From the NCBI GenBank assembly GCA_036266715.1, contig DATAXS010000006.1, forward strand, positions 1,757 through 65,756: 64,000 nucleotides of DNA. The letters are read 5' to 3'. Source of the DNA: Minisyncoccota bacterium (lineage in GTDB: Bacteria; Patescibacteriota; Minisyncoccia; UBA6257; 2-01-FULL-56-20). Made by a program: the position numbers and the translations under genes. The notes under the pieces were generated by a model. It was not told the DNA's origin, ran no database searches, and saw nothing but the letters and a program-made list of their open reading frames with translations. Positions 7,009 to 28,808 of the stretch are shown here, piece after piece (the stretch's first letter is position 1; the number at the start of each line of letters is the position of its first letter).

Positions 7009-7010
7009 TA

Positions 7011-10599: not shown

Positions 10600-12705
10600 T
10601 TGGCGAAAAAGACGCTCGCGTGGCACGTAAGCACCCAAAAGGACATGAAAAAACTCAAACAAATAAGCCTTTTCCTTCTTGTGCTTGCGGCGTATATCAT
10701 TTCCGGCAAACTAGGGCTCCAACTTGCGTCCATTCAGGCAAATGCCACGCCCATTTGGGCGCCCGCCGGTATTGCAACGGCGGCGCTCCTCATTCTGGGC
10801 TACCGTTTTTGGCCGGCAATATTTCTTGGTGCTTTTATTACGAATATTACGACGGGAGGAACGCCCGTGGCTGCAACGCTTGCAATCGCCATCGGCAACA
10901 CGCTGGAAGCGCTCCTTGCCGCCTACCTCGTGAACCGTTTTGCGAACGGCGTGCGTGCGCTCGATAAGACGGACAACGTGTTCCGCTTTGCGTTCCTCGC
11001 GGGCGGCGTGAGTCCCATGGTAAGCGCGACGATCGGGGTTACGAGCCTCTTCCTTGCGGGATCCCTGCATGCGGCGGACTTTACTTCCGTTTGGAGCACG
11101 TGGTGGCTGGGCGACGTGGGAGGCATGCTCATCATTGCGCCGTTCCTGCTCGCGTGGTTCACCGACCATGCGATCGAGTGGAGCACAAGAAAGATCCTTG
11201 AGGTCGTGGCGCTCGCCGCGCTGCTTTTTGCGTTTGCCCTTTTTGCGTTCAAAGGCACCCCGGGATTCATTTTTGTGTTCTACCTTTTTATTCCGGTTTT
11301 CGTATGGGTCGCGTTCCGGTTCAGCCAGCGGGAGACGGCGACCGTGCTCTTCGCCATGACCGAGATCACGCTTTATGAAACACTGCACGGCGAGGGGCCG
11401 TTCATCAATGCCGCGACGACGCTGAATGCGGCCCTGCTTCTTTTCCAGGCGGCGATGGTCACGATCGCTATCACCATGTTTGCGCTTTCCGCAGCGTCCG
11501 CCGAGGAACGGAAGCATGCGGTGGCGACCATACGGGCGAACGAACGGATGGAACAGGAAAAGGCGGTTGACGCGGCCATTATTGCGAGCGTGGGTGACGG
11601 GCTTATTGTGACCGACCAAGAAGGCAATATTGCGCTTGTAAATCCTCAAGCGGAAAAGTTTCTCGGCTGGCGGGCGGAGGAGATTGTCGGGAAAAAATAT
11701 TATGACGTGATCCAGGTGCAAAACGAGGATGGCGTGACCGTGGCGCTCTCCGAACGGCCGCTCGTGAAGACCGTCGCCGAACGGAAAAGGATTGCGAGTG
11801 GGCCGATGTTTGCCACGCGCTACTACGTGCGCAAGGACGGGGGCCGTTTCCCGGTTTCCTTCACCAAAACGCCCGTAATGCTCGGCGGCGAGGTCATCGG
11901 GACCATAGAAATTTTCCGCGACGCCACAAAGGGCGTGGAGATCGACCGCACAAAATCGGAGTTCGTATCGCTCGCGGCGCACCAGCTCCGCACGCCGCTT
12001 TCCATCATTGCCATGCACGCGGAGCTCCTCAAGAAGCAGGGCCAGCTTTTCGGCAACCACGACGAGGAGATGTGTGTGGATTATGCGACGGAGATCCACG
12101 ATGTTGCGATGCGCATGGCGGACCTCATCAACGACCTTCTGAACGTTTCCCGCATCGATACGCAGACGCTTGTCGTGACGCCGGGATCGGTCAATGTGCG
12201 GAGGCTTGTGGACGGTATCCTCCGGGAAATGGCGTTCAAGTTTTCCAGCCGGAATATTACCGTGCGCACGAACTATCCGGATCCCGCCCCGGAACTCGTG
12301 ACGGACCCACACCTTCTTGAGATCATAGTAGAGAATCTTTTGGGGAATGCGGTGAAATATACGCCTGAAGGGGGAAGGGTTTCCATTGTGGTGAGAGAAG
12401 AGGAGCTGGACATTGTGGTTACGATCACGGACACCGGCCACGGCATCCCGCATGCCCAGCACGGAGAAGTGTTCAAGAAATTTTTCCGTGCGGACAATGC
12501 GCGGCGGATGGCGAGCGAAGGCACCGGACTCGGCCTTTACATCGTGAAGTCGGTCGTGGAACGCCTGGGCGGTAGTATTTCCTTTGAGTCGCGCGAAGGC
12601 GAGGGGACGAGCTTTGTGGTGCATATTCCAAAGACGAGCGCGGAGGGACTGGGTATTCCGGAAGAAGACGATATTTCCACGCTCGCCGTGTCCTCTTCTT
12701 TATAA
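10600..12705 (+). CDS. sensor histidine kinase with MASE1 membrane domain, PAS domain, HisKA and HATPase
   Basis: N-terminal polytopic MASE1-like region (GKLGLQLA...IWAPAGIATAALL). PAS segment (VGDGLIVTDQEGNIALVN). H-box AAHQLRTPLS. N, G1 and G2 boxes (NAVKYT, DTGHGIP, GTGLGL). Confidence 0.8.
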   Translation: MAKKTLAWHVSTQKDMKKLKQISLFLLVLAAYIISGKLGLQLASIQANATPIWAPAGIATAALLILGYRFWPAIFLGAFITNITTGGTPVAATLAIAIGNTLEALLAAYLVNRFANGVRALDKTDNVFRFAFLAGGVSPMVSATIGVTSLFLAGSLHAADFTSVWSTWWLGDVGGMLIIAPFLLAWFTDHAIEWSTRKILEVVALAALLFAFALFAFKGTPGFIFVFYLFIPVFVWVAFRFSQRETATVLFAMTEITLYETLHGEGPFINAATTLNAALLLFQAAMVTIAITMFALSAASAEERKHAVATIRANERMEQEKAVDAAIIASVGDGLIVTDQEGNIALVNPQAEKFLGWRAEEIVGKKYYDVIQVQNEDGVTVALSERPLVKTVAERKRIASGPMFATRYYVRKDGGRFPVSFTKTPVMLGGEVIGTIEIFRDATKGVEIDRTKSEFVSLAAHQLRTPLSIIAMHAELLKKQGQLFGNHDEEMCVDYATEIHDVAMRMADLINDLLNVSRIDTQTLVVTPGSVNVRRLVDGILREMAFKFSSRNITVRTNYPDPAPELVTDPHLLEIIVENLLGNAVKYTPEGGRVSIVVREEELDIVVTITDTGHGIPHAQHGEVFKKFFRADNARRMASEGTGLGLYIVKSVVERLGGSISFESREGEGTSFVVHIPKTSAEGLGIPEEDDISTLAVSSSL

Positions 12706-12725
12706 TGTAAATCACCTTCACGTCC

Positions 12726-13127
12726 ATGCGTAAACCAAGGATTTTGATTGTGGAAGATGAACCGGCGATACTCCGCCTTCTTGCCAAAGTGTTTAGCGAG
12801 GAAGGGTTTGAGGTGTCCGCTGCGGAAGACGGGGAAAAAGGGCTCGCCGCGGGCCTCTTTGGCCAGCCCGACATTGTGCTCTTTGATATTGTGATGCCTA
12901 ACATGGATGGCATTACCATGCTCACCCGCATGCGGCGGGACGGCGGCAAATGGGGAAAGGGCGTGAAGGCGATCGTCTACAGCAACTTAAGCTATAACGA
13001 AACGCGCGACGAAGCGCGCGAAGCGGGCGTGGCGGATTTTCTCGTGAAGGTGAACGTGCGCGTGGATGAGGTCATCCGGCGGGTGCGCGAGGAGCTTGCC
13101 GCGTCCATGAGCGGAGAACTCAACTGA
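12726..13127 (+). CDS. stand-alone response-regulator receiver domain (CheY-like)
   Basis: ILIVEDE ... DIVLFDIVMPNMDG ... KAIVYSN. No output domain. Confidence 0.8.
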   Translation: MRKPRILIVEDEPAILRLLAKVFSEEGFEVSAAEDGEKGLAAGLFGQPDIVLFDIVMPNMDGITMLTRMRRDGGKWGKGVKAIVYSNLSYNETRDEAREAGVADFLVKVNVRVDEVIRRVREELAASMSGELN

Positions 13128-14249: not shown

Positions 14250-15407
14250 CTACGAAATATCGGATTCCTTCGTGCGAGCAAGGAACGGGGAAATGGGTTT
14301 TACGAACCCCGCCATGGCAAGATCCAGTAGTTTAAGATATTGGTTTACGGCGGCGAGCGAAGGGGAATCGGGCGCGCTCATCTCCGTGAGCGAGCGCGTG
14401 ACGCCGTCTTTCCCCGTATAAAATACGCGGTCGTGCCAGAATTCGCGCCCTTTGAGCGCGGGATAGCGGTCCACGATCTCGCTTATCTGGCCGGCATAGC
14501 GCACGAAGAGCGATTTGCGGCTTTGTGGCATGAGGAGAATATCACTCTTCTTTTCGTCGCGGATCTCATGGACAAACTCCTGGAAGGTCCGGGCATTCGT
14601 GAGGTTGATCATGCCGCTCGGTTCTAAGCCGTGCCGGTCGCCGCCCGAAATGAGCGGGAGGCCGATGCGCTCCGCAATGACCATCACGCGCCGGTTCGTT
14701 TCCCACGATTGGAGCGCGTTCACCTCAAGCGCGTGCATCCATTTGCCGTAATGCGCAAGGAACTCATCCACCACCGGCACGGGAATCTCGCGGCCGATCC
14801 TTCCCTGGTCCGTCAAGGGGTGGTTGAGGACGATGAGCACTTCGGGGATCTTGTGGAGTCGCGCGAGGATGTCCGCCAGCACCTTGCCATCCGGTTTTGC
14901 GGTGAATGCACGCATTTCCGCAAGAAGCGAGGCACTTTTTGCGCGCGGCAGGTTGTGTACGCCTACATGGAAAATAAATTTTTTGTAAGGGACGCTCCAC
15001 TCAAGTGAGATAGGAACGTTCTTTTTGTGAATGTCTATAAGTTCCTCGTTCGCCGCGGTCTCGTCGTGGTCGGAAAGGGAAACAAGAGGGCTTAAATTTT
15101 CTTTTTCCACCTGTTTTGCCTCAAGGAGATACGCGTCCTCCGGCGATATGGGCGACGTCCAGTAAGCATAGCGGTAGTCAATGCCCTCGCCCCACTTTTT
15201 CTCGTGGCTTGCTTCGGCACGGGCGAGGAGCCGGGCAAAGGGGGATACCTTTTCGGCGAAATCGGGGAGAAATCCAAGGTTTTCCTTTGAGTGCCACGTG
15301 TGGCCGTGCAGCGACACGCCCGTCAGGAATTTTTCACGCCGTGAACTCCTCCTCCACTTGTAATGGAAATTCGTAGCCATGCGCTTCGGGGAAATGATGT
15401 GATTCAA
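14250..15407 (-). CDS. PHP-domain metal-dependent phosphoesterase-like protein
   Basis: LHGHTWHS and ISGGDRHG are PHP-type His/Asp metal-binding motifs. Confidence 0.45.
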   Translation of the reverse strand: MNHIISPKRMATNFHYKWRRSSRREKFLTGVSLHGHTWHSKENLGFLPDFAEKVSPFARLLARAEASHEKKWGEGIDYRYAYWTSPISPEDAYLLEAKQVEKENLSPLVSLSDHDETAANEELIDIHKKNVPISLEWSVPYKKFIFHVGVHNLPRAKSASLLAEMRAFTAKPDGKVLADILARLHKIPEVLIVLNHPLTDQGRIGREIPVPVVDEFLAHYGKWMHALEVNALQSWETNRRVMVIAERIGLPLISGGDRHGLEPSGMINLTNARTFQEFVHEIRDEKKSDILLMPQSRKSLFVRYAGQISEIVDRYPALKGREFWHDRVFYTGKDGVTRSLTEMSAPDSPSLAAVNQYLKLLDLAMAGFVKPISPFLARTKESDIS

Positions 15408-15647: not shown

Positions 15648-17702
15648 ATGAAAAAAATAATTGTGTTCGTGTGCTTTGTGTTCGCAGGTTTTTTTGTTCA
15701 CCAAAATGTCATGAACACGGCGCACGCCGATTCGCCCTTCACTATGGCGGTGCAGGGGTCGGCGACTGCGGCCGTTGGCCAGGGGGACGGCCTTTCCGCA
15801 TCCGTCACGGACAGCGGCAATTCCGTTTCGAATGTGATCGTAGACGTGGAAGTGCACGACGCATCCGGCGCCAGGGTGTTCCAGCAGTTCTTCTCCGGCC
15901 AGAATTTCGGTTCGGGCCAAACGCAGAATTACAGCGCGGGATGGACGCCGACCGCGAACGGCACGTATACCGTGGATGCGGGCGTTTTTAATGCCGATTG
16001 GTCGCAGCTTCTTTCCTGGGAACAGGCCGGGCTTACGGTAACGGTGGGCGGCGCGGCGGCGCCGAGCTTCACCGCGACGGCAAGTGCGAGCCCCGCCGCG
16101 CCGACCACAGGCCAGCCCGTCAACGTGTCGTTCAACGTGCAGGACGGCAACGCGCCGGCGAACGGCATGATCGTGGATTTTGAGGTCTATGGTCCCTCCG
16201 GCGCAAAGGCATACCAGCAGTTCTTTTCCGGCCAAAACTTTTCCGCGGGTCAAACGAATTCCTACACGGCGTCGTGGACGCCGAGCGCCACGGGGAACTA
16301 TACCGTGGACGTAGGGGTCTTCACGGCAAATTGGGCAGAGACCGTTTCCTGGACAAATGTTTTGGGAACGACGGTCGCGCAATCAAATCCGCAGTTTAAT
16401 GTGGCGGCAAACGTGAACCCCACCGCTCCCACGCCCGGGCAGGCAGTGTCGCTCGGCGCGAACGTCACGGATGCCGGCGGCCCGGTGTCAAACGTCATCA
16501 CCGACCTTGAGGTGCATGATGCTTCCGGCAACAAAGTGTTCCAGCAATTCTTTACCGGCCAGAACTTTTCTGCGGGCGGGACCCAGTCCTACAACGTGAA
16601 TTGGACGCCATCCTCGGCAAGCACCTACACGTTTGACGTCGGCATATTCAATGCCGATTGGTCCCAACTTCTTTCCTGGAATGCGGCGGAAAATATCAAT
16701 GTGGCAACGGCCGCGACGGAAGATCCACCCGCGCCAACCCCAACCCCGACCCCGACCCCGGCACCAACACCGACTCCCACTCCCACGCCGGTGGCCACTC
16801 CTGTCGCGAATTCGGTGTTGAGTGCGACGGTAGCGCTTTTGAACAGCCCCTTTTACGTTGACCCGGATTCGCAAGCAGCGGTTTCCGCAAGTTCGCTTAC
16901 CTCAAGCGATCCAACGGACGCGGCATTGATCAATATTATTGCCACTGAGCCGACGGGTGTCTGGTTCGGCGGCTGGAACACGGACGTGTACCAGGATGTG
17001 AACGCGCTTGTGAGCGCCGCGCAGAATACGGGGAAGACCCCGGTGCTCGTGGCGTACAACATTCCCAATCGTGACTGCGGCGGGTATTCCGCCGGCGGCG
17101 CGCAAACTCCGGCCGCATACCAATCGTGGATACGATCTTTTGCGAGCGGCATTGGCAACCGGAGCGCGATCGTGATCCTTGAGCCGGACGGGCTCGCCAA
17201 CATGGATTGCCTTTCGGCAGCGGACCAGGTGACGCGGGAAGGACTTTTGAACTACGCGGTGGGCATCTTGAAATCGCTTGGCAATACCAAAGTCTATCTT
17301 GATGCGGGCAATCCGAACTGGATATCCGCGGGGGACATGGCTCCGCGGCTTGAGGCCGCCGGCATCGCGCAGGCGGATGGATTTTCGCTCAACGTCTCCA
17401 ACTTCTATACGACGTCGGCAAACGTGGCATTCGGCGAATCGCTCTCGGCGCTCGTAGGCGGCAAGCACTTTGTGGTGGACACAAGCCGCAACGGCAACGG
17501 TTCCTTGAACGGCGAGTGGTGCAACCCAGCGGGCATGGCGCTCGGCAACACGCCGACGTTCAAGACGGGAAATCCGTTAGTAGATGCATATCTTTGGATC
17601 AAGCCGCCCGGCGAATCGGATGGGACGTGCAACGGCGGACCTTCGGCGGGGACATGGTGGTCGCAGTATGCGGTAGGTTTGGCGCAAGCAGCGGGTTACT
17701 GA
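15648..17702 (+). CDS. secreted glycoside hydrolase family 6 (cellulase) with three N-terminal ~105-aa repeat domains and a PT-rich linker
   Basis: Signal peptide. Three repeats of V(S/T)D.G..VSNVI.D.EVHDASG..VFQQFF(S/T)GQNF..GQT..Y...WTP...G.YTVD.GVF.A(D/N)W (aa ~30-365). PT linker PPAPTPTPTPTPAPTPTPTPTP (nt ~16723-16790). C-terminal GH6 motifs YNIPNRDCGG, ILEPDGLANM and WIKPPGESDG. Confidence 0.8.
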   Translation: MKKIIVFVCFVFAGFFVHQNVMNTAHADSPFTMAVQGSATAAVGQGDGLSASVTDSGNSVSNVIVDVEVHDASGARVFQQFFSGQNFGSGQTQNYSAGWTPTANGTYTVDAGVFNADWSQLLSWEQAGLTVTVGGAAAPSFTATASASPAAPTTGQPVNVSFNVQDGNAPANGMIVDFEVYGPSGAKAYQQFFSGQNFSAGQTNSYTASWTPSATGNYTVDVGVFTANWAETVSWTNVLGTTVAQSNPQFNVAANVNPTAPTPGQAVSLGANVTDAGGPVSNVITDLEVHDASGNKVFQQFFTGQNFSAGGTQSYNVNWTPSSASTYTFDVGIFNADWSQLLSWNAAENINVATAATEDPPAPTPTPTPTPAPTPTPTPTPVATPVANSVLSATVALLNSPFYVDPDSQAAVSASSLTSSDPTDAALINIIATEPTGVWFGGWNTDVYQDVNALVSAAQNTGKTPVLVAYNIPNRDCGGYSAGGAQTPAAYQSWIRSFASGIGNRSAIVILEPDGLANMDCLSAADQVTREGLLNYAVGILKSLGNTKVYLDAGNPNWISAGDMAPRLEAAGIAQADGFSLNVSNFYTTSANVAFGESLSALVGGKHFVVDTSRNGNGSLNGEWCNPAGMALGNTPTFKTGNPLVDAYLWIKPPGESDGTCNGGPSAGTWWSQYAVGLAQAAGY

Positions 17703-19312
17703 TAATTTACTACGGATAAAGTGGCAGACGACGTGGACGACGCCTGTTCCGTGCTCGGTGTGCCCGCCGCGCCCGCACCGCCCGAAACGGCATACGAATT
17801 TACGATTGTCTGCATATCCGCGAGCGTGGTGTTGTTGTAGTTCAGCTGGTAGACGTAGAGCGTGAGGTCCGGGGAAAAGTTCTGTTCGTAGAGGCGCTGG
17901 TAATGTGTTTCAAAATACATTTGAAGATCGCTTTCATACCCCTGGTTGTAGCTCAAGATGAGATAGAGCTTTTGGTAGTTCCCGAATGTCCCCACGTTCG
18001 CCGCGAGCGTGCTTGTGGTGAACGCGGGGATGGGACCGGACACGAGCTGGTCCCAGACGGGGAGCGTGGTCAGCGTGGCGCTCCCGGTGTAGTAGTACTC
18101 AAAGGGATAGACGGTGAATGGCGCGGAAACGGCCACGATGTCCCGGCTTGATGCGTTCGCCGAAACATAGGAGGCCACTTGGGAATAATCTTCTTTGACC
18201 GACGCCTGCGGGTTCACCGTTTGTATCTGGAGCATGACGACCATAAACCCTGCGAGCGCGAACTTCCCGACCGTGGCTGCGGATTGCGGATAGAACGAGA
18301 AGAACCAGGCGACCGCGAGACAGAACGATGGGAAGAAACCGATGAAATAGCGCGAAAGATAGAACGGCTCAATGACGTGGCTTAATGCCGCTGCGAGGAC
18401 GATGGGTACGATTGCTGCCGCAGTAAAGTAAACGCCTTCCGGCGACACCTTCTGGTTTTTTTGGAGCGCAAAAAAAAGCAGTAGCGTAAGGAGTGGCCAT
18501 GCGGAAAGAATAGCAGTGTTCAAGGGGTCTGCCTGGAAACCAAAGAGGAAGTTGGAGAATGTATTAAAGACATCAACCGTGGAAGGCGCCGTGAGCTTTG
18601 GCGTGGTGTTTGCGCCGAAGCCGCCCAGCGTGTGGACGTAGTAGAGCCACGGGACAAAGAGTGCCGCAAGAATGAGCGTGATCATCACAAAATTCCTCAA
18701 AGAGTGTTTGGGGAATATTTTGTGGTAGGCGATATAGAAAAGCCCGTCCACGCCGAGCATAAGAAGGAAGAAGTAATGGGTGTAGATCCCCAAAAGACAG
18801 GAAAAGAAATAACCGAACCAATATGCCTTCCGATGCTCCGGCTTTCCCTTAAAGAGAAGGATAAAAAATATTTGGCTTGCCACGGTGACGAGCGTGAGCA
18901 GGCTGTACATCCGGATAATGCTCCCGTACCAGTTGGTAAACGGGGAAATGGTAAAAAGGATGGTGGCAAAAATGGAGAGCGATTCATTGAACGCTATTTT
19001 TCCCAAGTAATACACGAGAGGAATGGTCACAAGGTAAAAAATGAGCGAGAGCAGGCGCGCGACCGTGACCGAGCTACCGAAGAGCATCAGCCAGTAGTGG
19101 AGCATGATGTGGTAGAGCGGCACGTGCACGTCCTGGCCCACCACGTAGAATATTCCCGTAAAGGTGTGCTCCGCCTGCCAGAGGGTTTGCGATTCATCCA
19201 GCCCGATGCTCTGCGGCATCATATAAAACATTGAGAAGAGGAAGGCAAAAACGACGAGCCCGATGAGAATGTAGGGTATGTAGACGCGTTTCATTGCGCG
19301 GCGCAAAGACAA
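17696..19312 (-). CDS. GT-C fold glycosyltransferase (PMT_2 / ArnT / GT39-like), polytopic membrane protein
   Basis: More than 10 TM helices. N-terminal loop with conserved acidic residues (GLDESQTLW). Layout typical of PF13231. Confidence 0.65.
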   Translation of the reverse strand: MSLRRAMKRVYIPYILIGLVVFAFLFSMFYMMPQSIGLDESQTLWQAEHTFTGIFYVVGQDVHVPLYHIMLHYWLMLFGSSVTVARLLSLIFYLVTIPLVYYLGKIAFNESLSIFATILFTISPFTNWYGSIIRMYSLLTLVTVASQIFFILLFKGKPEHRKAYWFGYFFSCLLGIYTHYFFLLMLGVDGLFYIAYHKIFPKHSLRNFVMITLILAALFVPWLYYVHTLGGFGANTTPKLTAPSTVDVFNTFSNFLFGFQADPLNTAILSAWPLLTLLLFFALQKNQKVSPEGVYFTAAAIVPIVLAAALSHVIEPFYLSRYFIGFFPSFCLAVAWFFSFYPQSAATVGKFALAGFMVVMLQIQTVNPQASVKEDYSQVASYVSANASSRDIVAVSAPFTVYPFEYYYTGSATLTTLPVWDQLVSGPIPAFTTSTLAANVGTFGNYQKLYLILSYNQGYESDLQMYFETHYQRLYEQNFSPDLTLYVYQLNYNNTTLADMQTIVNSYAVSGGAGAAGTPSTEQASSTSSATLSVVNYQ

Positions 19313-19315
19313 TTT

Positions 19316-20863
19316 TTATATTTCGACTTCTTGGTTTTGGGTGGCTTGGAGCAATGCGGAGACCGTCATCGGTTCCTGTGTTTGCGGCGCGGCGGCGCGC
19401 ACGTATTTGGCAAAGACGACCGCATTGATGAGGCCCCACGAAAAGTTCGCGACCCAGGCGGGCGTCACGACGCCATGCGCGTGCACGACGGAATATGCCG
19501 CGCCCGCGACGACGAGCGGGATGTACGCCATTTGAGCAACCGTCAAATAAAGGAAGTTGCCGCGCTGGGCCCGTTTGGGCGTAATGGAGAATCCGGATTT
19601 CCTGCGGAAGAAAGAGGCGACCGACGAGGCAATGTGGATTTGGAATCCCGCGACCGAGAACGCGAGCGCGCGGTAAGTGAAGGAAGAATTGGAGGAGCGC
19701 TGGATGGTGTAGAGCATGAGCAGTATGTAGGGAATGAAGACGGTCGCGAGCGCCATCGTGGAGGTTTGGATGGGGAACTGTCCGGTAAAGAAGAACATAA
19801 GAGGAATAATGGCATCAATGAGCACCACCCACCCTGAAAGGAAGTAGCTCACCGAGGAGAGATATTGCATGCGCTGTTTGAACGTGATCCCGCGCGTAAA
19901 GAGCAGGTTGTGCTGGAAGATGAGGTCCAGGCTGCCGCGCGCCCAGCGTGCCTGCTGTTTTGTGTAGGCAAGGAAATCTTCCGGTGCCAAGCCGCGGGCA
20001 AGCACCTTCGGCACGTAGAGCGACTTCCAGCCGTTCTTATGGAGGAAAAATCCGGTAATGAAATCCTCGGCGATGCTGCCCTCGTACATGCCGCCGACCT
20101 CCATGAGCGCCGTGCGACGCACTACCATGTTCGTGCCGCACATGGTGACCGCATTCAGGCGGTTTTTCCCTTTGCAGATGGGGCCAAAGAAGAGCGACTG
20201 CTGTTCCCACGCGCCACCCGCCACGAAGTTGGTTTCGCTGTTCTTGTAAAATTGCGGCGTTTGCACAAAGGCGAGTTGGGAATCCGCAAAATAGGGGACG
20301 GTCTCGCGGAGAAACTCCGGCTTGGGAATATGGTCCGAATCAAAGAATGCCACGAACGGGCTCTCGGTGACGGACAGGCCGTTATTGATGTTGCCGGCTT
20401 TCGCCCCGCGCGGCTTCCGGCGCGTAATGCAATTCACGCCGAGCTGGTCCGCAAGGCGCACCACGTCGGCCCAGTTCTCTTTTTTTGCCACATAGCCATC
20501 GTTCAAAATAAACACGTAAAAGTTGGGGTAATCCATGGCGAGCGCGCCGCGCACGGTTGCTTCTATCACGTCAATCGGCTCGCCCGCCACGGTGATAAAG
20601 ACATCCACGGGCGGCGTGAATTGCGGGTCTTTCGGCACATCGTGCTCCGTGTCCCAGATGGTCCAGATAAAGGTGATGGCTTGCCAGAGGTGGAAGACCT
20701 CGCCGAAAATAAGAAGCCAGAAAAGGACCAACTCTCCTTTTTGGAAGAAGAACGCGATCATAAAGAAATAAAAGAGCGCAAGCAGGATGTTCACCGCAAG
20801 GAGAAGTTTGGGAACCTGAGTATTTTTAAGAAATTGTTCGTCGTGCATTGGATGTTGTTGCAA
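19316..20863 (-). CDS. processive family-2 glycosyltransferase, cellulose-synthase-like (BcsA/CesA-like, no PilZ domain)
   Basis: D,D,D,QxxRW signature: FILNDG...FFDSDH...TKQQARWARG. TM helices flank the GT-A core. Confidence 0.75.
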   Translation of the reverse strand: MQQHPMHDEQFLKNTQVPKLLLAVNILLALFYFFMIAFFFQKGELVLFWLLIFGEVFHLWQAITFIWTIWDTEHDVPKDPQFTPPVDVFITVAGEPIDVIEATVRGALAMDYPNFYVFILNDGYVAKKENWADVVRLADQLGVNCITRRKPRGAKAGNINNGLSVTESPFVAFFDSDHIPKPEFLRETVPYFADSQLAFVQTPQFYKNSETNFVAGGAWEQQSLFFGPICKGKNRLNAVTMCGTNMVVRRTALMEVGGMYEGSIAEDFITGFFLHKNGWKSLYVPKVLARGLAPEDFLAYTKQQARWARGSLDLIFQHNLLFTRGITFKQRMQYLSSVSYFLSGWVVLIDAIIPLMFFFTGQFPIQTSTMALATVFIPYILLMLYTIQRSSNSSFTYRALAFSVAGFQIHIASSVASFFRRKSGFSITPKRAQRGNFLYLTVAQMAYIPLVVAGAAYSVVHAHGVVTPAWVANFSWGLINAVVFAKYVRAAAPQTQEPMTVSALLQATQNQEVEI

Positions 20864-20865
20864 AG

Positions 20866-22263
20866 TTATTGTGAGAAGTTGAGGGCAAAAAGGTTGGGGA
20901 GGTCGTTATTGTAGAGCGCCATCCCGAACCATGCGATATTGGAGTCGTAGTAGCTGAGTGGCAGGCGCCACGTCTGCGTGTCGGGGTCATAAAGCGATTG
21001 GAGCTTTTCCGTATAGACCGTGTTGCTGTCTGCGGGATCTGCGACCATGAAGTATCCTATTGTGCCGCCATATACGGCAGGATCCTGGTAGAGCGGCGGG
21101 ACGGGAGTCCCGTCGTGCGCATAGACCGCGTCAAGAATCTGTTGTTTGTCCCATTGATCGGTAAGAAAGTGGAGTTTTTGGAGCACGGCTTCCGCGCGCG
21201 GGTCCTTGTTCCATTCCCAGTCAAGCGCGATGCGGAAGGGAACGCGGAGCGCATCGTAGCCGAAGTTCGTGTCTTCGCCGGAACTGGCTGCGGGAGCGGA
21301 GAGGCTGCCGGTAGTCGTGTCCATGACGACCCAGTCCGGCGGCAGGTCCGCGCTCGTCGCGCTTGTTGAAGCGTCGAGCGGAAGCGCAATACTGTTATCC
21401 AATACTTGGTATGAAGTGTTGATGAGACCGTTCCAGTCATCCGAAGGATCCACTTGGGCGAAGATGCGGTAGGCGTACGGGGCGAAGTACGAAGGGTCAA
21501 TGGGCTGCATTTCCTGCGTCTTTTCGGCGCTCGTCAGATTGTTGGGCGCGAGGTATGGTTCATTGTTTGCAATAAACACCTCGTTCGCCCAGATGCTCTT
21601 GACGATGGGGATCGCGGCCTCAAGGTACGCGGGGTTTTGCCAGCGCGCATAGGCGAAGATGAGCGAGAGGGCAATGTCCGTGTCGGCATCGCTCGCGCTG
21701 TTCTCCCCATTTTGTGCAACGATGACCCCGCCCGTTGTGTTACCGCCGCCGTTTCCCGCGGTAGTGGAAGGCCCCCAGAGCCACGAAAAGAGATTGTCGC
21801 TCCGTTGGAGGTTCGTTTGGGTCCACTTCCAGCTGGCATCGAAAGTCGGTTCGTCATCCATCCAGACCGCGCGGAGCATCGTGTATCCTTCGCCCTCGGA
21901 AGTACTGTCGTTGCTTCGCTCGGTGTCGAACGTGCGCCCGCTTGAGGGGTCGATATAAGATCCTTTGTAGTTTTCCCAGAGCGACGCGAGCATGGTCTTG
22001 TTCGAAAACACGGGTTCGGAAAGCGTTTGGGAATTCTTTTGGTAGTACCAGGTGCCGAGGAGCGTAACGCCGCCAAGCGCAAGGAAGATGACGCCAAATA
22101 TTTTTGCCAAAAAATGATTCCGCGCGGTACCAAGGATGAGAAGTAGTATTCCGGCCACGAGTACGGCGGCTGCGATCACGATGAGTGTGACGAACGTGCC
22201 GTGCGTGAGCGCGTTTGAAGGGTAGTAGTCGTAGTTAAAACTTGTGGAAACGGTGGTAGGCAT
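20866..22263 (-). CDS. glycoside hydrolase family 8 (BcsZ-like endoglucanase), membrane-anchored/secreted
   Basis: GH8 motifs TSEGEGYTML and ASDADTDIALSLIFA. Start trimmed to the internal Met to avoid a 110-nt overlap with the upstream gene. Confidence 0.7.
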   Translation of the reverse strand: MPTTVSTSFNYDYYPSNALTHGTFVTLIVIAAAVLVAGILLLILGTARNHFLAKIFGVIFLALGGVTLLGTWYYQKNSQTLSEPVFSNKTMLASLWENYKGSYIDPSSGRTFDTERSNDSTSEGEGYTMLRAVWMDDEPTFDASWKWTQTNLQRSDNLFSWLWGPSTTAGNGGGNTTGGVIVAQNGENSASDADTDIALSLIFAYARWQNPAYLEAAIPIVKSIWANEVFIANNEPYLAPNNLTSAEKTQEMQPIDPSYFAPYAYRIFAQVDPSDDWNGLINTSYQVLDNSIALPLDASTSATSADLPPDWVVMDTTTGSLSAPAASSGEDTNFGYDALRVPFRIALDWEWNKDPRAEAVLQKLHFLTDQWDKQQILDAVYAHDGTPVPPLYQDPAVYGGTIGYFMVADPADSNTVYTEKLQSLYDPDTQTWRLPLSYYDSNIAWFGMALYNNDLPNLFALNFSQ

Positions 22264-22303
22264 GTGTGTGGATTTGATACGCCGTGCGGCGGTGCGCGTT
22301 ACG

Positions 22304-24187
22304 TTAATAAAGTTTGTAAATAAATATGGTGGTGCCCACGCGATAGTCGGGTGGCGGTACGCCACCCATGCCCGGCGCGGGCGCGCGGAACGCGGTGAGC
22401 CAGGAATATTCATCGCTCGGGTCGCGCGCGTAGCCTGGCGCGGCCGGCTGGATGGCGTCCTGGAGATTGTTTATGGAAACTGCAAAATACTCTATGCCCT
22501 GCGACGCGGGATTGCCCATGGAAGAATTCCACGCCACGTATTTATTGCCCAAGTAATATGCCGGATTGGAACCGCCAAAGAAGTCCAACGCGAGCTGGTT
22601 CACTTGGGGGTTCTGGTTCATCCACGCTTGCAGGGCGAGCATGTCCTGGCCCCAATCGTAGTTGGAGTCTGTTACGTAGCGGTAGCCGTTTTCCGTCCCG
22701 TCACCGAGCTCGTTGAAGTACGAGAGGAAGTGCGGGTAAGCAAATGCTGTTTCGCCGAGCGACCATACGAGCATTGCTCCCACAAACGCGCCCTTCCACG
22801 AGAATTTGCTTCCATTGCCCGCCGCCGCGCCCGCTCGCGGCGCAAACCAGCGGCGGAGCGAGCTCGTCGCGAGAACATACATGAGCGGAATGGTGGGTAG
22901 GAGGTGCCGCACGCCGATGTTCAGCGTGCTTTCTATGCTGATGCCCCAATAGACCACCACAAAAACAAACATGGCGAATTGCGGGAATTCTTCCCGTATG
23001 TAGCTCCAGAACCGACTTTTCCGCTTCAGAATGACGGCGATGATCCTTGCAAGCGCAAGGATGGCCGCGAGCACGAGGAGGATGAGGACCGGCAATGTTT
23101 CCTTGAGCGCGTAGACGACGGGGAAGTAGAGGTGCGTGCCGTAGGAGTAGACCTTGCCGAGAAAGTAGCTTGTGTTGCCGCCCGTGAGGCGCTCAAAGTC
23201 CATGATCTCGCCAAGGAGATATTCCGCCATCGGACGCGTGAGGGGATTTCCCGCGGCCTTGATGTCAAGTTTCGCCAAGCACGTGACGGGATGGGTCGGC
23301 TCGCATGTGCCGGACGCAATCCCGCCGACGATGGATACTGTATCCGAAAGTTGGCGTGCGGGCGGATACCCGGCCGTAAAGATCGCATAGAGCGGATAGA
23401 CGATGACCGCATACCCGATGACGCCAATAAGCAGGAAGTAGCCGATATATTTTAAAAGCCGGCGGAAAAAGGAGCGCGCACGCTGTGCGGCGAACGGATC
23501 TTTTTTCCAGTCGCGTACCACGGTACCAAGAAAATCGAAAAGCAAAAGGATGGCAATCACCGGGATGAGGATGAGGTCGGAAAATTTCATGACCTGCGCG
23601 ATGCCGAGCCCGATCCCGGCGATAAACAAATTCTTTGCGCCGGGTTTTTGCATAAAGCGCACGAAACAGAATAATCCAAAGACCGCGCCGAATGCCGCAG
23701 CGATGTCCGTCGTCACGTAATGCCCGTTTGCGAGGATGACGGGCGAGAGGCCGACCATGGTCGCCGGCAGGAATGCCCATGTGTACCCAAAAAGCTTTGC
23801 GGCCCAAAAATAGGTGAGCAGGATGAGTCCGAGCGTGAGGAGCATGGGGAACAGCCGTGCCCAGCCGATGATGGCAGAGGCGCTGTTTCCCAAGCCGAAC
23901 AAAAATGCGCCGCCTACGCCCCATTCGCCGTTCACGGAGGTCGTCCAAAAGGAATTGGTATCCGGGAACTGCAGGTGCAGGAAGAGGAGCGGGACGGCGG
24001 CGAGCGCCTTAAGCAGAGGGGGATGTTCGGGATTCAGGCGGTAATCAAAACGGGTGATGTAGGCGTATCCGGCGGGAATATGCGCAAGTTCGTCCACCAC
24101 GGCGGACTCGCCCTGTGCACTTCCCCACATAAGCGCAAAACTCAGTGCACAAAGCACGAGAAGCGCGATTCGCGTTTTCTTCGTCAT
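22304..24187 (-). CDS. second GT-C fold glycosyltransferase (PMT_2/GT39-like) membrane protein
   Basis: VVDELAHIPAGYAY loop motif followed by many TM helices. Confidence 0.6.
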   Translation of the reverse strand: MTKKTRIALLVLCALSFALMWGSAQGESAVVDELAHIPAGYAYITRFDYRLNPEHPPLLKALAAVPLLFLHLQFPDTNSFWTTSVNGEWGVGGAFLFGLGNSASAIIGWARLFPMLLTLGLILLTYFWAAKLFGYTWAFLPATMVGLSPVILANGHYVTTDIAAAFGAVFGLFCFVRFMQKPGAKNLFIAGIGLGIAQVMKFSDLILIPVIAILLLFDFLGTVVRDWKKDPFAAQRARSFFRRLLKYIGYFLLIGVIGYAVIVYPLYAIFTAGYPPARQLSDTVSIVGGIASGTCEPTHPVTCLAKLDIKAAGNPLTRPMAEYLLGEIMDFERLTGGNTSYFLGKVYSYGTHLYFPVVYALKETLPVLILLVLAAILALARIIAVILKRKSRFWSYIREEFPQFAMFVFVVVYWGISIESTLNIGVRHLLPTIPLMYVLATSSLRRWFAPRAGAAAGNGSKFSWKGAFVGAMLVWSLGETAFAYPHFLSYFNELGDGTENGYRYVTDSNYDWGQDMLALQAWMNQNPQVNQLALDFFGGSNPAYYLGNKYVAWNSSMGNPASQGIEYFAVSINNLQDAIQPAAPGYARDPSDEYSWLTAFRAPAPGMGGVPPPDYRVGTTIFIYKLY

Positions 24188-24322
24188 AATGATGGCTCCA
24201 TATTCTTTTTTTAATTTTCAAGAAATAAAGATGATATCGCCATGAAGGCGCGCGCGGGCAGGTGCGCGCCGGGCGCACAAAAAACGCGCGCACCGATGAT
24301 CGCGGATCGCGCGCGGATTTTG

Positions 24323-24828
24323 CTAGCGGCTTTTCTTCGCAACGATCTTCGTCGTGGCGTCGCTCTCCATTTTGTCCAAAACGTTTTGTGCGGCGAGAAT
24401 GCGGAGCTCTTCCGCCATGTGGATGCGTTCGCGGAGCTCGGTTGTGGAGAAGCCATGGTCGCGACCGTTGAAGTGCACGCGGTACGGCAGGTCCCAGCCG
24501 GTAAATTTCTTTCCTTTCCAATCCGCGCCGATGATGCGCACGTCGTAACGGACGATTTTCAAAAGGTCATAAAGATCGGCTTCCGTGGAGTAGTACACGA
24601 TCTCGTCCACGTACTTGATGCTTTGGAGAATAATGCGCCGTTCCTCAAAGGACATGACGGGTTTGTTCTTTACCTTCTCCCGATAGCCGGGATCAAGCGT
24701 GGGATCGGTCTGCAGGGCGACAATGAGATAGTCGCAGACCTCCTTGCAGTCCTTGAACATGAGCATGTGCCCGGCGTGGCAAAGGTCGAACGCGCCGCAG
24801 GTGAAACCGACGTTGTATTTTTTCATAA
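24323..24828 (-). CDS. cytidylyltransferase (glycerol-3-phosphate cytidylyltransferase TagD-like / RfaE domain II-like)
   Basis: GFTCGAFDLCHAGHMLMF matches the (H/T)xGH nucleotidyltransferase motif. Start taken at MKKYNVGF. Confidence 0.65.
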
Positions 24829-25025
24829 TTGCAATTTTCGCATTGGGGAGATTAAAAATTTGTGAAGACCCTGCATATTTCCGGTTCATCGCCCGTTCAC
24901 TGGCCCTCCGTTTTAATAAGTATAAAAGCCGCGCACGCAGTGAGCAACCATGGCGGTTGGCGCCGCGTGCGACGCGCAATAAATAAAAAGGTCAATTGGT
25001 AAAAATAAGCAAATAAATAAAAACA

Positions 25026-26495
25026 ATGTTTATAAAAACAAAAAAGTGGAAAAAAGTGGTCTTGTCGCTCGTGCTCGGCGTGGCAGTGGTGGCGCTCGGT
25101 GCCTTTGCCGTCACGCGGGCGCAGATGGTCTCCTCGCTCTCCATCGCTTCGTCTTCGGCGAGCGACCAGAGTTCCCTGCTTTCGGTCACCTCGGTGGATG
25201 AGACCACGGATACCAGCTTGCTCACGGGGAATGCCACGAGTTCCGTTTCGGTGGGGCTCATAAGCCAGGACGGCGCGAACACGAACGGTGTTTCCGTCGC
25301 GGTCCAGCTTCTGCAGAACGGCAACGTGATCCAGCAGGCCGTCTACAGCAACCAGAACATTCTCCATGAGAGCCCGCAGACATATTGGCTTTCGTTCTCC
25401 GGCGTTCCGAACGGAACGTACACCGTTGCGGTCGTGGTCAATAACCCCGACGGCAGCGTGAACGCGTCCTTTAGCAATCTCGGCTCGGTCGTAGTGTCAG
25501 GGAGTACCGTTACCTCAACCTCCACGACTACTTCCACCGCCGCGAACGCGATCCAGATAATACCCACGAGCTTGCCCGACGCGACCGCTTCCAGTTCGTA
25601 TTCTGAGACGCTTACCGCCTCGACTACGATGAGCGGTCCCTTCACGTGGAGCCTTGCTTCCGGGACGTTGCCGGACGGCCTTTCGCTTGATACGTCGGCC
25701 ACGAGCAGCATGGCTACGCTCTCCGGCACGCCGACCACGGTAGGGTCATCCACGTTCGCGGTGAATGTGGCGAACGCCACGAGTTCCGCGTCGCAGACGT
25801 ACACGCTGAGCGTTGATGCGCCCGCGAGCGGCACGCCCACGCCAACCTATGCGGTTCAGATAGTTCCCGCGTCGCTTCCCGATGCGACGGTAAGCAGTTC
25901 GTATTCGCAAACGCTCACCGCCTCCACGTCGGCAAGCACGTCATTCGCGTGGAACGTCGCTTCCGGGACGTTGCCGTCCGGGCTTAGCCTCAATACGGGC
26001 ATAAGCAGCACGACGGCCACCATCACGGGCACGCCGACTGCAGCAGGATCGTCCACGTTTACCATCGGCGCGACCGACGGGACGAACTCGTCTACGGAGT
26101 CATATACCTTGAGCGTGGATCCGTCGTCAACGACAACCACCACCACGAGCACGGCGACATCTTCCGGCGACCTCGCCATAAATAGCGTCTATGAGCCCGC
26201 GACGAGCGTGAATGCAAGCGATACGCAAACCACCATCACCCCATATCTCGTTTCCACGAACGGTGCGAATGTGGGCAATGTGACGGTGCAAGTAGCGCTT
26301 CAGCAAAACGGTACGGTGATTGATTCGCAGTCCTATGGCAACCAGGATATTCTCCACGAATACCCGCAGGCCTATCCGCTCACCACGTCGTCCACGCTTC
26401 CCGCCGGGACCTACACGATCGCCGTCACGGTCTATAACGCCGATAATTCGGTGAATGCTTCCTTCCCAAACCTTGGGACTCTTACGGTGACATAG
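25026..26495 (+). CDS. secreted surface protein with two putative-Ig (He_PIG-like) domains
   Basis: Signal peptide. Twice GPFTWSLASGTLPDGLSLDT...TLSGTPTT. Ser/Thr-rich linkers. Confidence 0.55.
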   Translation: MFIKTKKWKKVVLSLVLGVAVVALGAFAVTRAQMVSSLSIASSSASDQSSLLSVTSVDETTDTSLLTGNATSSVSVGLISQDGANTNGVSVAVQLLQNGNVIQQAVYSNQNILHESPQTYWLSFSGVPNGTYTVAVVVNNPDGSVNASFSNLGSVVVSGSTVTSTSTTTSTAANAIQIIPTSLPDATASSSYSETLTASTTMSGPFTWSLASGTLPDGLSLDTSATSSMATLSGTPTTVGSSTFAVNVANATSSASQTYTLSVDAPASGTPTPTYAVQIVPASLPDATVSSSYSQTLTASTSASTSFAWNVASGTLPSGLSLNTGISSTTATITGTPTAAGSSTFTIGATDGTNSSTESYTLSVDPSSTTTTTTSTATSSGDLAINSVYEPATSVNASDTQTTITPYLVSTNGANVGNVTVQVALQQNGTVIDSQSYGNQDILHEYPQAYPLTTSSTLPAGTYTIAVTVYNADNSVNASFPNLGTLTVT

Positions 26496-26578
26496 CCGCG
26501 CGGCGGCATTCAAAGCGAGTCAAGTAAAAATGACACAAAACAAAACCCGGGATTTCCCGGGTTTTGTGGCATTAAGGG

Positions 26579-27871
26579 CTAGCCTGTGATCACAACCTTC
26601 GCAATGCCAAAAATGCTCTTCAGTGAGTATTGGGAGGAAAAGGGGATATCGTCGCCGTTCGCCACGTACGGGTCGCGCATGATGTAATTGCCTTTGCTGC
26701 CGCTTATGAGCACCACATAGTGCGTGCCGCCGTACGCATTCAGTCCCACGATCACCGGGTTTCCGGTCGCGAGCGTTGCGTCAATGGTCGTCGTCTTGCG
26801 CGTGACCGTTGCGCCGTCCACGTTGATCGTGGTGAGGAGGTAAGCGGGATAATATGCCGCGAAGTTGGCGGGATTGGAATTGATGGTCACGGGCGTCACG
26901 TCTTTATAACCGTAATGCGTGAGGACCATGGCAAGCGAGGTAACAAGGCACCCGTCGCTTGCGAGCGTGTATTTGGTGCCGTCAAGCGGGAGGTTGCCCC
27001 AGAGCGCGTCGCGCTGGTTGTAGTAGCAGCCCCACGCGTCACAATCCGTTTGACCGGCAAGCAGTTTGGAGCCGCCGGCGTTTTGCGTGAATGCCGAAAA
27101 GCTGTTGAGCTCGGCCTGGGCTGCGGCGAGCAACTGCTCGTACGTGGATTCTTTCTGGTCCGTTTCCGTAAGCAACTGGTTTTTGGATTGCACGGTCTGG
27201 GTGAGCGATTGTTGCTGGGAAGAAAGTGATTGCTGTTGGGTGGCAAGCGTCTGCTGTTTTTGCTGCGAGGTGGTCTTTGAGTCCGCAAGCGTGGATTCTT
27301 GCGTTTGGAGCGATTCGAGTTCGTTTTGGACGGCGCCTTCCACCTGCAGGGTGGCGTTCGTGTCGCTCCATGCGTCCGCGAGCGTGTTGGATGAAAGCAC
27401 CTGCATGAGGAGCGATTGGCCGTCATCCTTCTGGAGATTCACAAGATATTCTCCGAGCGCCTCCTGGTCGGTCTGGATCGTGGCTTCCGTATCGGAAATT
27501 TCTCCCCCGATCTGCTGGATCTGCAGCTGGGTGATGTTTATCTGATTTTGCGTCACGGAGATCTGCGCCTGCACTTTGCTCTTTTGGAGGTCAAGGGAAC
27601 TGATGGCCGCCTGGAGCGTTTTCTTGTCCGCGCCCACCTGCGTGAGCTCCGCCTGGTAGGTGGCGATCTGCTGGTTGAGCGATGTTATCTGCGCATTGTT
27701 GGCGTCTATCTGTTGCTGGAGCACGGCATCCGTGCTCGTCGCGGCGGTCGCGCTAGTCGAGGTGGTCGTTTGGGCGAGCGTCGCTGGAATGCCCACGCCT
27801 ACAATGAGCGTGAGTGCGCCGAGAAATAAGCCAACGCAGAGCGTTCCGAGTACTGCGAGATGCCTCATCAT
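26579..27871 (-). CDS. secreted coiled-coil protein with C-terminal C39-like (papain-fold) peptidase domain
   Basis: Signal peptide. Q/L-rich heptad region. C-terminal DGCLVTSLAMVLTHYG...GGTHYVVL matches Peptidase_C39_2. Confidence 0.55.
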   Translation of the reverse strand: MMRHLAVLGTLCVGLFLGALTLIVGVGIPATLAQTTTSTSATAATSTDAVLQQQIDANNAQITSLNQQIATYQAELTQVGADKKTLQAAISSLDLQKSKVQAQISVTQNQINITQLQIQQIGGEISDTEATIQTDQEALGEYLVNLQKDDGQSLLMQVLSSNTLADAWSDTNATLQVEGAVQNELESLQTQESTLADSKTTSQQKQQTLATQQQSLSSQQQSLTQTVQSKNQLLTETDQKESTYEQLLAAAQAELNSFSAFTQNAGGSKLLAGQTDCDAWGCYYNQRDALWGNLPLDGTKYTLASDGCLVTSLAMVLTHYGYKDVTPVTINSNPANFAAYYPAYLLTTINVDGATVTRKTTTIDATLATGNPVIVGLNAYGGTHYVVLISGSKGNYIMRDPYVANGDDIPFSSQYSLKSIFGIAKVVITG

Positions 27872-27917
27872 TTGATTATATAAAAATCCAAGAAAACAAG
27901 CACATTTTCATGAAGAT

Positions 27918-28472: not shown

Positions 28473-28538
28473 ATAAAAAAATATGAAAAAGGCCCGGCTA
28501 TCATTTGATGCAGCGGGGCCTTTTGTGGAGGTCATTGT

Positions 28539-28808
28539 TTACGTCCTTACCCGGAAGGTCAGTGCCGTTCGGGGTTGTGCCCGAGAAAGCATGACGAACG
28601 GTGTCAGGAACGCGGCGATGATCGCGCAGACATACAGCATGAACATGAATTCTGCGAACATGACCACGGCCGCAGAAAATGCCCATCGGTGAGAAACGGC
28701 ATACAGCGAGGCGGCGAATGGTGACCAGGTGAGCACCAAAGCCAACACGAAAACTACGTCGAGAACCATGTCCCAAAAGGTGAATCTCGGGATTCGGGGA
28801 GCGTCCAT
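28539..28808 (-). CDS. small membrane protein (89 aa)
   Basis: Three hydrophobic segments. No known motifs. Confidence 0.3.
   Translation of the reverse strand: MDAPRIPRFTFWDMVLDVVFVLALVLTWSPFAASLYAVSHRWAFSAAVVMFAEFMFMLYVCAIIAAFLTPFVMLSRAQPRTALTFRVRT

Follow-up and report, generated by a model that had tools for sequence, protein, structure and literature searches.

We analysed a 64,000-nucleotide stretch of a Minisyncoccota genome (contig DATAXS010000006.1 of assembly GCA_036266715.1), hereafter the window, and in it a locus that encodes a cellulose-synthase-like glycosyltransferase (GT) of family GT2 together with a glycoside hydrolase (GH) of family GH8, glycosyltransferases of the GT-C type, a cytidylyltransferase-like protein and a convergent GH6 hydrolase. 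An initial annotation had assigned six open reading frames (ORFs) at this locus to families; all six lie where it had placed them, their Pfam families match the assignments and their catalytic motifs are intact. The features of the locus are given below, with probable gene boundaries first and maximal ORFs in brackets (E, E-value; TM, transmembrane).

15648..17702, plus strand: GH6, a secreted beta-1,4-glucanase by family (Pfam GH6), converging on the operon end.
17696..19294 (maximal ORF 17696-19312), minus strand: downstream GT-C of the PMT_2 type (Pfam PMT_2, E 3e-8).
19316..20848 (maximal ORF 19316-20863), minus strand: BcsA-like processive GT2 synthase/translocase (Pfam Glyco_tranf_2_3, Glyco_trans_2_3 and Cellulose_synt).
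20866..22263 (maximal ORF 20866-22413), minus strand: membrane-anchored, BcsZ-like GH8 endoglucanase (Pfam GH8, E 1e-36).
22114..22263, minus strand: Tyr-motif tail-anchor element at the N-terminus of GH8, MPTTVSTSFNYDYYPSNALTHGTF, then a TM helix.
22304..24187, minus strand: upstream GT-C (Pfam PMT, E 4e-11; PMT_2, E 3e-8).
24323..24826 (maximal ORF 24323-24979), minus strand: cytidylyltransferase-like nucleotidyltransferase, similar to TagD and to RfaE domain II (Pfam CTP_transf_like, E 2e-11).

The minus-strand genes are transcribed in the order cytidylyltransferase, upstream GT-C, GH8, GT2 and downstream GT-C, and the last four of these form the operon. Probable starts lie inside the maximal ORFs at 22263 (M51) for GH8, 20848 (M6) for GT2, 19294 (M7) for the downstream GT-C and 24826 (M52) for the cytidylyltransferase; the shorter starts were preferred because of database entries of 510 and 532 amino acids (aa), homologue alignments and the sequences at the junctions. 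With these starts the last four genes are separated by gaps of 40, 17 and 21 nucleotides (nt), and the overlap between the maximal ORFs of GH8 and the upstream GT-C vanishes. The gap between the cytidylyltransferase and the upstream GT-C is 135 nt. A GC-rich hairpin followed by a T-run, picked out by eye as a terminator in this gap, was rejected, as its folding z-score against shuffled sequences was -0.19, and a generic promoter/terminator scan gave no more sites than shuffled sequence. At the opposite end, the convergent ORFs of GH6 and the downstream GT-C have 7 nt in common (17696-17702), which is the overlap of stop codons that the initial annotation had recorded. A mis-binned contig was also considered and rejected, since the nearest homologues of three different proteins were all labelled Patescibacteria. 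GT2 and both GT-Cs are themselves deposited under Candidatus Paceibacterota / Patescibacteria group, like their closest relatives.

The GT2 protein is predicted to be a membrane-integrated processive synthase of the BcsA type, without a PilZ domain and without a BcsB partner. It matched Pfam Cellulose_synt (E 7e-20) and, with phmmer, Rhodobacter BcsA (4HG6/5EJ1) over aa 16-494 (E 1e-49). Its motifs comprise LNDG (D122), FDSDH (D175/D177), QTPQ, AED (E266/D267), QQARW (303-307) and an FSITPK gating loop, and in an alignment of 20 homologues (51-83% identity) the catalytic and gating motifs, including F425, T428 and K430 of the loop, were invariant. The QxxRW signature of the processive GT2, initially described as lacking PilZ and BcsB, holds in all 20 homologues. 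Among NCBIfam models, GT2 scored 256.5 bits against TIGR03030 (CelA; cut-off 699.1), 198.9 bits against NF008558 (below the equivalog cut-off of 992), and 72 and 40 bits against PgaC and NodC, each below its cut-off. In a Foldseek search with an AlphaFold2 model of the protein (pLDDT 82.8), BcsA of E. coli and Rhodobacter matched with TMq 0.79-0.83 (best E 5e-30), while plant CesA (~0.73) and hyaluronan and chitin synthases (<=0.61) ranked lower; CslF6 was also among the matches. In the model, two TM helices lie at the N-terminus and four at the C-terminus, so that the first two TM helices of BcsA are missing. No Pfam match to PilZ was found in GT2, which ends about 25 aa past its last TM helix, and all 120 homologues among the matches listed were 496-599 aa long. 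BcsB-family proteins gave no match in the 57 window ORFs scanned, which included every ORF of at least 500 aa, and none was present among the called genes of four annotated relatives (loci L081 and L085-L087).

The GH8 protein appears from its sequence to be a membrane-tethered, BcsZ-like endoglucanase with intact catalytic residues. Two predicted N-terminal TM helices (residues 75-93 and 105-123 of the maximal ORF) leave the catalytic domain facing outward. Its best solved relatives were endoglucanases from cellulose synthase operons (Komagataeibacter CMCax, 1WZZ, E 1e-19), and alignment to CMCax preserved the catalytic Glu (SEGEGY) and two Asp (SDADTD and GYDALRVP), which bears out the initial assignment to BcsZ-like GH8 enzymes. 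Its score against the NCBIfam BcsZ model (NF008305) was 106.6 bits (E 1e-30), below the equivalog cut-off of 299. The 684-aa GH6 protein carries a signal peptide (aa 1-27), three immunoglobulin (Ig)-like repeats of about 110 aa each (aa ~34-363, nt ~15747-16736, with cores at residues 79, 190 and 299) that match BsuPI/BatD/CARDB in Pfam, a long Pro/Thr linker and, at the C-terminus, the catalytic domain (aa 397-684, nt 16836-17699; PF01341, E 1.6e-66 over residues 418-663), in agreement with the earlier description of a secreted GH6 with three binding-module-like repeats. Its best solved relative was the Mycobacterium tuberculosis cellulase CelA1 (1UOZ, E 1e-72), and the RDCG, EPDGLAN and PGESDG motifs are kept. 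Single-linkage clustering of locus ORFs had joined GH8 and GH6 in one cluster; this grouping was discarded, as domain-wise BLAST found no GH8-GH6 fusion. Because two unrelated glucanase families accompany the synthase, and their nearest characterised relatives are beta-1,4-endoglucanases, the product of GT2 is, by analogy, likely a beta-1,4-glucan made from UDP-glucose.

With each GTDB species represented by a single genome, a scan returned at least 558 confirmed GT2 relatives. The best 80 of these by GT2 similarity alone, each with 10-kb flanks, were compared with the window proteins using tblastn; taxon labels are those of the deposited records of metagenome-assembled genomes. GH8, GT2 and the downstream GT-C lay on one strand in 73 of the 80 loci, and in the remaining seven the contig ended exactly at the place of the missing gene. 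GH8 was upstream of GT2 in all uncut loci, and the gene order was GH8-GT2-GT-C save in one clade of 9-10 loci with the order GH8-GT-C-GT2. In the reverse test, three of three arbitrarily chosen GT-C homologues, on contigs outside the GT2 list, directly followed GH8 and GT2, and in these relatives (L085-L087) the GT2 and GT-C genes overlap by 1-29 nt. A GH6 catalytic domain was found within 10 kb of the core in 31/80 loci, in 28 of them convergent and downstream. The conserved unit is therefore a membrane-anchored GH8, a BcsA-like GT2 and one GT-C, in which the downstream GT-C accompanies the synthase as an obligate, conserved partner. This unit is smaller than the five-gene order that had been proposed: the trio is syntenic in all 80 loci wherever the contig allows, but the upstream GT-C and the cytidylyltransferase do not share this conservation. 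Furthermore, the architecture that had been regarded as unusual does have a GT-C in place of BcsB and BcsC, yet it is no one-off and extends across the family in Patescibacteria and some Actinomycetota.

By label, the 80 loci belong to Paceibacteria/Parcubacteria (Kaiser-, Adler-, Taylor- and Yonathbacteria), Saccharimonadia, Doudnabacteria, Gracilibacteria, WWE3, Levyibacteria, Blackburnbacteria and Actinomycetota. The seven actinomycetotal loci (L059-L065) come from Geodermatophilus (three), Klenkia (two), Quadrisphaera and 'Streptomyces sp. NP160'; their GT2s are 48-51% identical to that of the window, and their module is GH8-GT2-GT-C(-GH6). In Geodermatophilus sabuli the order is a further GH8 (minus), a small GT2, a GT4, GH8, the BcsA-like GT2, the GT-C and GH6 (minus). 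In a neighbour-joining tree rooted on Rhodobacter BcsA and built without bootstrap support, GT2s of the window type formed one clade on a long branch, and the seven actinobacterial GT2s were monophyletic and nested within Patescibacterial sequences beside a Saccharimonadia-labelled group. This topology suggests horizontal transfer between Patescibacteria and actinobacteria, and likewise suggests its direction. Actinobacteria are a phylum from which hosts of cultured Saccharibacteria come.

We next consider the downstream GT-C. The protein has about 11 predicted TM helices and a C-terminal extracytoplasmic alpha/beta domain, as expected of a multi-spanning GT-C fold. A sequence search against solved structures gave no match, and a fold comparison was therefore needed. 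In 36 homologues (42-65% identity), L38-D39-E40, directly after the first TM helix, was invariant, as were many residues of the outer loops. Sequence and fold comparison point to the fold and the invariant Asp-Glu pair of transferases that depend on lipid-phosphate sugars. Indirect support for a polyprenyl-phosphate sugar as its probable donor came from the relatives, as a GtrB-like GT2 (PF00535) was present in 35/80 loci, at most 1 kb away from the core in 28 of these, and was fused to a GtrA/DPMS TM domain (PF04138) in 12/80. The GtrB-like gene lies between GH8 and the GT-C in L021 and L036, GtrB/GtrA genes are also near the module in L085-L087, and no GtrB was found within 10 kb in 45/80 loci. 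The best NCBIfam matches of the GtrB-like genes were ArnC, PgfS, AglJ and dolichyl-phosphate hexose transferases, enzymes that without exception produce polyprenyl-phosphate sugars. We take the GtrB/GtrA genes as the predicted donor-supply half of a three-component extracytoplasmic glycosylation system, and their presence beside the core in relatives argues that the downstream GT-C is catalytically active.

The initial annotation had two GT-Cs flanking the synthase. Both genes are real, and the downstream one is the conserved partner described above; the upstream one, however, belongs to the module in the window's sublineage alone. It carries a DELAH motif at aa 32-36 (DE at 32-33) and has about 1,600 homologues (1582), mostly Patescibacterial at about 48% identity. 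It adjoins the module in L001, L081 and the contigs of P0002, P0004 and P0008, all of the window's sublineage, and the one typical relative examined (L083) is located elsewhere in its genome, away from the module. The upstream GT-C is thus a member of a widespread housekeeping Patescibacterial GT39-like family that was recruited to the operon only in this sublineage. In L083 (3577-9947) the homologue is divergent from a gene for a 1460-aa fn3/Big_7/PG_binding surface protein, a neighbourhood that hints at glycosylation of large surface proteins by this housekeeping family.

The cytidylyltransferase, too, is real and lies upstream, but its 135-nt gap and its presence near the module in about seven loci do not fit its earlier placement in the operon. 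Of the NCBIfam models, RfaE domain II matched best, with 72 bits, followed by TagD with 66 bits; neither score reached its cut-off. Homologues were found within 10 kb in L001, L009, L020, L045 and L087, and in about seven of the loci examined in all. In L021, a 525-aa triple fusion (6956-8533, plus strand) of a GtrB-like GT2, a GtrA/DPMS TM domain and a cytidylyltransferase domain homologous to that of the window sits between GH8 and the GT-C. Because of this fusion, the TagD/RfaE-II-like nucleotidyltransferase can be implied to feed a lipid-linked donor pathway; the fusion is the only strong functional link of the gene to the module, to which it is otherwise loosely linked. A cytidylyltransferase family spanning 39 loci, as given by single-linkage clustering, was rejected as an artefact of the same fusion, most members of the cluster being GtrB-like GT2 or GtrA proteins.

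A further small element heads the operon. At least 33/80 loci, among them L002, L015, L022, L048 and L071-L079, have a small ORF immediately upstream of GH8, often with 4 nt in common with it; the ORF encodes an N-terminal signal/TM segment, a variable Ser/Thr/Pro-rich stretch, a juxtamembrane motif and a C-terminal TM helix. The pattern Y-x4-[LIMF]-x18-G-x2-[LIFMV] occurred in 20 of 33 segments against 0.25 expected from background; as it was derived from the same 33 segments in which it was counted, this figure is descriptive and constitutes no test. In most relatives a separate ORF, the element forms an in-frame N-terminal extension of GH8 in three cases (the window, L003 and L012), which explains the two TM helices of the window's GH8; in L039 and L047 it is fused to the GtrB-like GT2. 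In the window the Ser/Thr/Pro-rich stretch is reduced to about 9 residues. The element had no clustered family match in the all-against-all comparison of locus ORFs. Its predicted topology resembles the anchor of BcsB, with the N-terminus outside, a single C-terminal TM helix and a conserved Gly, and we speculate from this likeness that it could be the missing accessory subunit of the six-helix synthase.

The remainder of the window was also inspected. At 2396-6929 and 34948-36708 (both plus strand) it encodes a GH18, two GH130 and a secreted GH113 beta-mannanase with a CARDB domain; GH130 is a family of beta-1,4-mannooligosaccharide phosphorylases, and the second GH130 is a 642-aa two-domain protein. 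The GH18 and GH130 genes had been noted before, whereas the gene then called GH5-like is the GH113. Use of beta-mannan may be linked to the module or simply co-located with it, GH113 also being near the modules of L085 and L086. About 2.5 kb from GH6, at 10600-13127 (plus strand), a MASE1-PAS-HisKA-HATPase histidine kinase is followed by a stand-alone response regulator; genes for GGDEF, EAL or PilZ were not observed in the window. A 385-aa ORF without Pfam or NCBIfam match (14250-15407, minus strand) lies immediately upstream of GH6. At 25026-30550 lie three genes in a row for predicted surface proteins: one of 489 aa is of the He_PIG/PKD Ig-like kind, one of 430 aa is a coiled-coil protein that includes a C39-like peptidase domain, and one of 556 aa carries RGI-lyase-like, PG_binding_1 and two fn3 domains. 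For the 877-aa protein encoded at 36792-39425 the sole match was a weak one to PG_binding_1, and a 613-aa protein at 47792-49633 (plus strand) has two lamin-tail (LTD) domains. Other genes of the window encode glycolysis, pentose-phosphate and ribonucleotide reductase functions and many secreted Ig/fn3/PG-binding proteins, and the gene content fits a small fermentative Patescibacterium.

We favour the reading that the locus encodes a Patescibacterial synthase-dependent envelope system for a beta-1,4-glucan (cellulose-like), to which the GT-C would add sugars outside the membrane, and we put its probability at about 0.5. A surface beta-glucan or glycan-decorated envelope polymer had been suggested initially, and the comparative synteny of GH8-GT2-GT-C strengthens this suggestion. 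By analogy with BcsA, GT2 would polymerise UDP-glucose and push the chain through its own channel. At the outer face of the membrane, the GT-C would pass on a sugar carried by polyprenyl phosphate; GtrB/GtrA-type proteins would synthesise and flip this donor, and in this genome their genes would lie outside the window. We rank the emerging glucan first as the acceptor, which would yield a polymer with side chains, and the Ser/Thr-rich juxtamembrane element from the operon head second, because the GT-C stays beside GT2 even where the Ser/Thr-rich ORF is absent. BcsA-type synthases extrude the reducing end first and GT-Cs donate a lipid-linked sugar solely to an acceptor hydroxyl; side-chain decoration would therefore be the only direct action of the GT-C on the glucan. 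The Tyr-motif tail anchor might act as a stand-in accessory subunit for BcsB. At the outer face the chain would be trimmed or released by the membrane-tethered GH8, a role also proposed for BcsZ and CcsZ (PMC8892547), and the convergent secreted GH6 would remodel or degrade the same polymer, as suggested for Streptomyces CslZ (PMC9040799). Extracytoplasmic three-component glycosylation of glycans is itself established (PMC11127046, PMC8035078).

Several observations weigh against this reading. GtrB and GtrA were not found in the 64-kb window by tblastn (best E 0.18), and donor supply is here assumed. Every NCBIfam match is far under its equivalog cut-off, and GH8 is a polyspecific family, with chitosanases, xylanases and licheninases among its members. 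Which sugar is used and how it is linked, moreover, is not readable from sequence. The Tyr-motif element cannot be a universal subunit because, among the 80 loci, it was not seen in the actinobacterial loci or in the clade with the alternative gene order. Finally, the best fold match of the downstream GT-C is a protein O-mannosyltransferase, and the Ser/Thr/Pro-rich protein at the operon head in many relatives favours a protein acceptor.

The foremost alternative, a possible but clearly less probable one, takes up this protein acceptor. The GT-C would then be a protein O-glycosyltransferase that, with GtrB/GtrA, modifies the Ser/Thr/Pro-rich tail-anchored protein and perhaps the Pro/Thr linkers of GH6 and GH8, and the stalk so modified would shield or arrange the synthase complex, or else anchor the glucan. 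The frequency of the small protein upstream of GH8 and its fusion to the GtrB-like enzyme in two loci are in line with this explanation, as are the long Pro/Thr linker of the window's GH6 and the place of PgfS among the top NCBIfam matches of the GtrB-like proteins. Furthermore, in streptococci GtrB and a GT-C together glucosylate membrane proteins in disordered extracytoplasmic regions that are rich in Ser/Thr (PMC12041528). However, the actinobacterial loci and the GH8-GT-C-GT2 clade, in which no Ser/Thr-rich ORF was seen, still keep the GT-C beside GT2, and what is conserved in the small protein is the Tyr motif and the TM helix rather than the Ser/Thr/Pro-rich stretch, of which about 9 residues are left in the window. 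PMT_2 also covers lipid- and glycan-directed GT-Cs.

It is unlikely that the polymer is another beta-glycan (a mannan, a chain resembling chitin/chitosan, or a glucan with beta-1,3 or mixed linkages), or that the locus serves chiefly catabolism, in which GH6 and GH8 would scavenge beta-glucans from outside. The wide margins by which all equivalog models are missed and the polyspecificity of GH8 would allow for such products; BcsA-like folds also make curdlan and mixed-linkage glucans, with CslF6 among the Foldseek matches, and the window is rich in beta-mannan enzymes (two GH130 and GH113), GH113 adjoining the module in L085 and L086. Against this, two unrelated glucanase families co-occur with the synthase, with beta-1,4-endoglucanases (CMCax/BcsZ and CelA1) as their closest characterised members, GT2 scores far higher against CelA/BcsA (256 bits) than against PgaC (72) or NodC (40), and the strict synteny of hydrolase and synthase mirrors that of BcsZ, CslZ and CcsZ in known cellulose systems (PMC8892547). 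Least probable of all is that the GT-C, with or without the Tyr-motif element, serves mainly as a structural substitute for BcsB, a scaffold in the membrane that would steady the PilZ-less six-helix synthase and steer the chain, its own transferase activity having no bearing on polymer synthesis: the absence of BcsB from the scanned window ORFs and annotated relatives, the loss of BcsA's first two TM helices, the GT2/GT-C gene overlap in relatives, which suggests co-assembly, and the 45 loci without a GtrB within 10 kb would suit it, but the invariant Asp-Glu motif and outer-loop residues in 36 homologues and the GtrB/GtrA genes that adjoin the core in 35/80 loci (in L021 and L036 they lie within it) speak for an active enzyme.

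With the favoured reading of a glycosylated beta-1,4-glucan, a wider proposal can be made tentatively, and we consider it doubtful in its full extent: that Patescibacteria and a few Actinomycetota possess a distinct class of cellulose-synthase complex, in which an active GT-C, often with a tiny Tyr-motif subunit, replaces BcsB, the exported beta-glucan is glycosylated from a polyprenyl-phosphate sugar, and the module has been exchanged horizontally with actinobacteria. Patescibacteria have genomes of about 1 Mb with very little biosynthetic capacity, and to our knowledge their surface chemistry is essentially unknown. That a four-to-six-gene module is kept in at least seven Patescibacterial lineages (by label) despite these small genomes argues for an important function in the envelope or in host attachment. 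If the proposal is true, the glucan may be an attachment or envelope glycan of episymbiotic ultra-small bacteria, and the partners in the exchange of the module would be Saccharimonadia-like Patescibacteria and actinobacteria. As the trio is present in culturable strains of Geodermatophilus, Klenkia and Quadrisphaera, the hypothesis is testable without cultivation of candidate phyla radiation (CPR) members.

Of the known systems, bacterial cellulose synthesis (Bcs) by BcsA-BcsB-BcsZ-BcsC shares with the module a membrane GT2 with D, DxD, (T/A)ED and QxxRW motifs, an FxVTxK gating loop and a BcsA-like fold (TMq 0.83), as well as a GH8 endoglucanase gene beside the synthase with the same catalytic residues. 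The module differs in that it has no PilZ, and hence no cyclic di-GMP switch of the BcsA type, and neither BcsB nor BcsC; its synthase has 2+4 TM helices instead of the 4+4 of BcsA, its GH8 is membrane-anchored, and it has an obligate GT-C partner. It would thus provide a bacterial cellulose-synthase-like enzyme that is free of BcsB and PilZ and has a new obligate partner. The term GT-C is absent from a comprehensive 2021 review of Bcs systems, an Actinoplanes exopolysaccharide paper mentions GT-C systems without a cellulose synthase, and we found no description of the GH8-GT2-GT-C architecture in Patescibacteria/CPR or Geodermatophilus in the open-access literature.

The CslA-GlxA-CslZ (+LpmP) system of Streptomyces likewise combines a PilZ-less BcsA-like synthase with an envelope that lacks an outer membrane and has a GH6 gene beside the synthase in opposite orientation, and its polymer is deposited in the cell envelope (PMC9040799; bioRxiv 10.1101/2023.11.20.567928). 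Unlike that system, the module contains a GH8 and a GT-C, and the actinobacterial copies carry GH8-GT2-GT-C, not cslA-glxA; Pfam scans of the window and of the Geodermatophilus locus L060 gave no GlxA copper oxidase domain, and no lytic polysaccharide monooxygenase was seen in the window. With clostridial ccsABZHI the module shares a Gram-positive-type envelope and a membrane-tethered endoglucanase beside the synthase (PMC8892547), whereas CcsZ is a GH5 and not a GH8, and the clostridial system has a BcsB-like CcsB and acetyltransferases and no GT-C.

Three-component systems (GtrA/GtrB/GtrC, CsbB/GtcA/YfhO, GacI-L, ArnC/E/F/T and GtrB/PgtC2), in which modification takes place after export (PMC11127046, PMC8035078, PMC12041528), differ in their known acceptors, which are O antigens, teichoic acids, rhamnopolysaccharides, lipid A and proteins, and the window itself lacks GtrB/GtrA. 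In the literature we found no example that ties such glycosylation to a synthase-dependent polymer of the BcsA type. The likeness lies in the relatives, 35/80 of which bring a GtrB-like protein, a GtrA flippase and a GT-C together at the synthase. The module would thereby link synthase-dependent secretion to extracytoplasmic lipid-linked glycosylation and, if the proposed complex exists, its product would be the first synthase-dependent polysaccharide known with three-component decoration.

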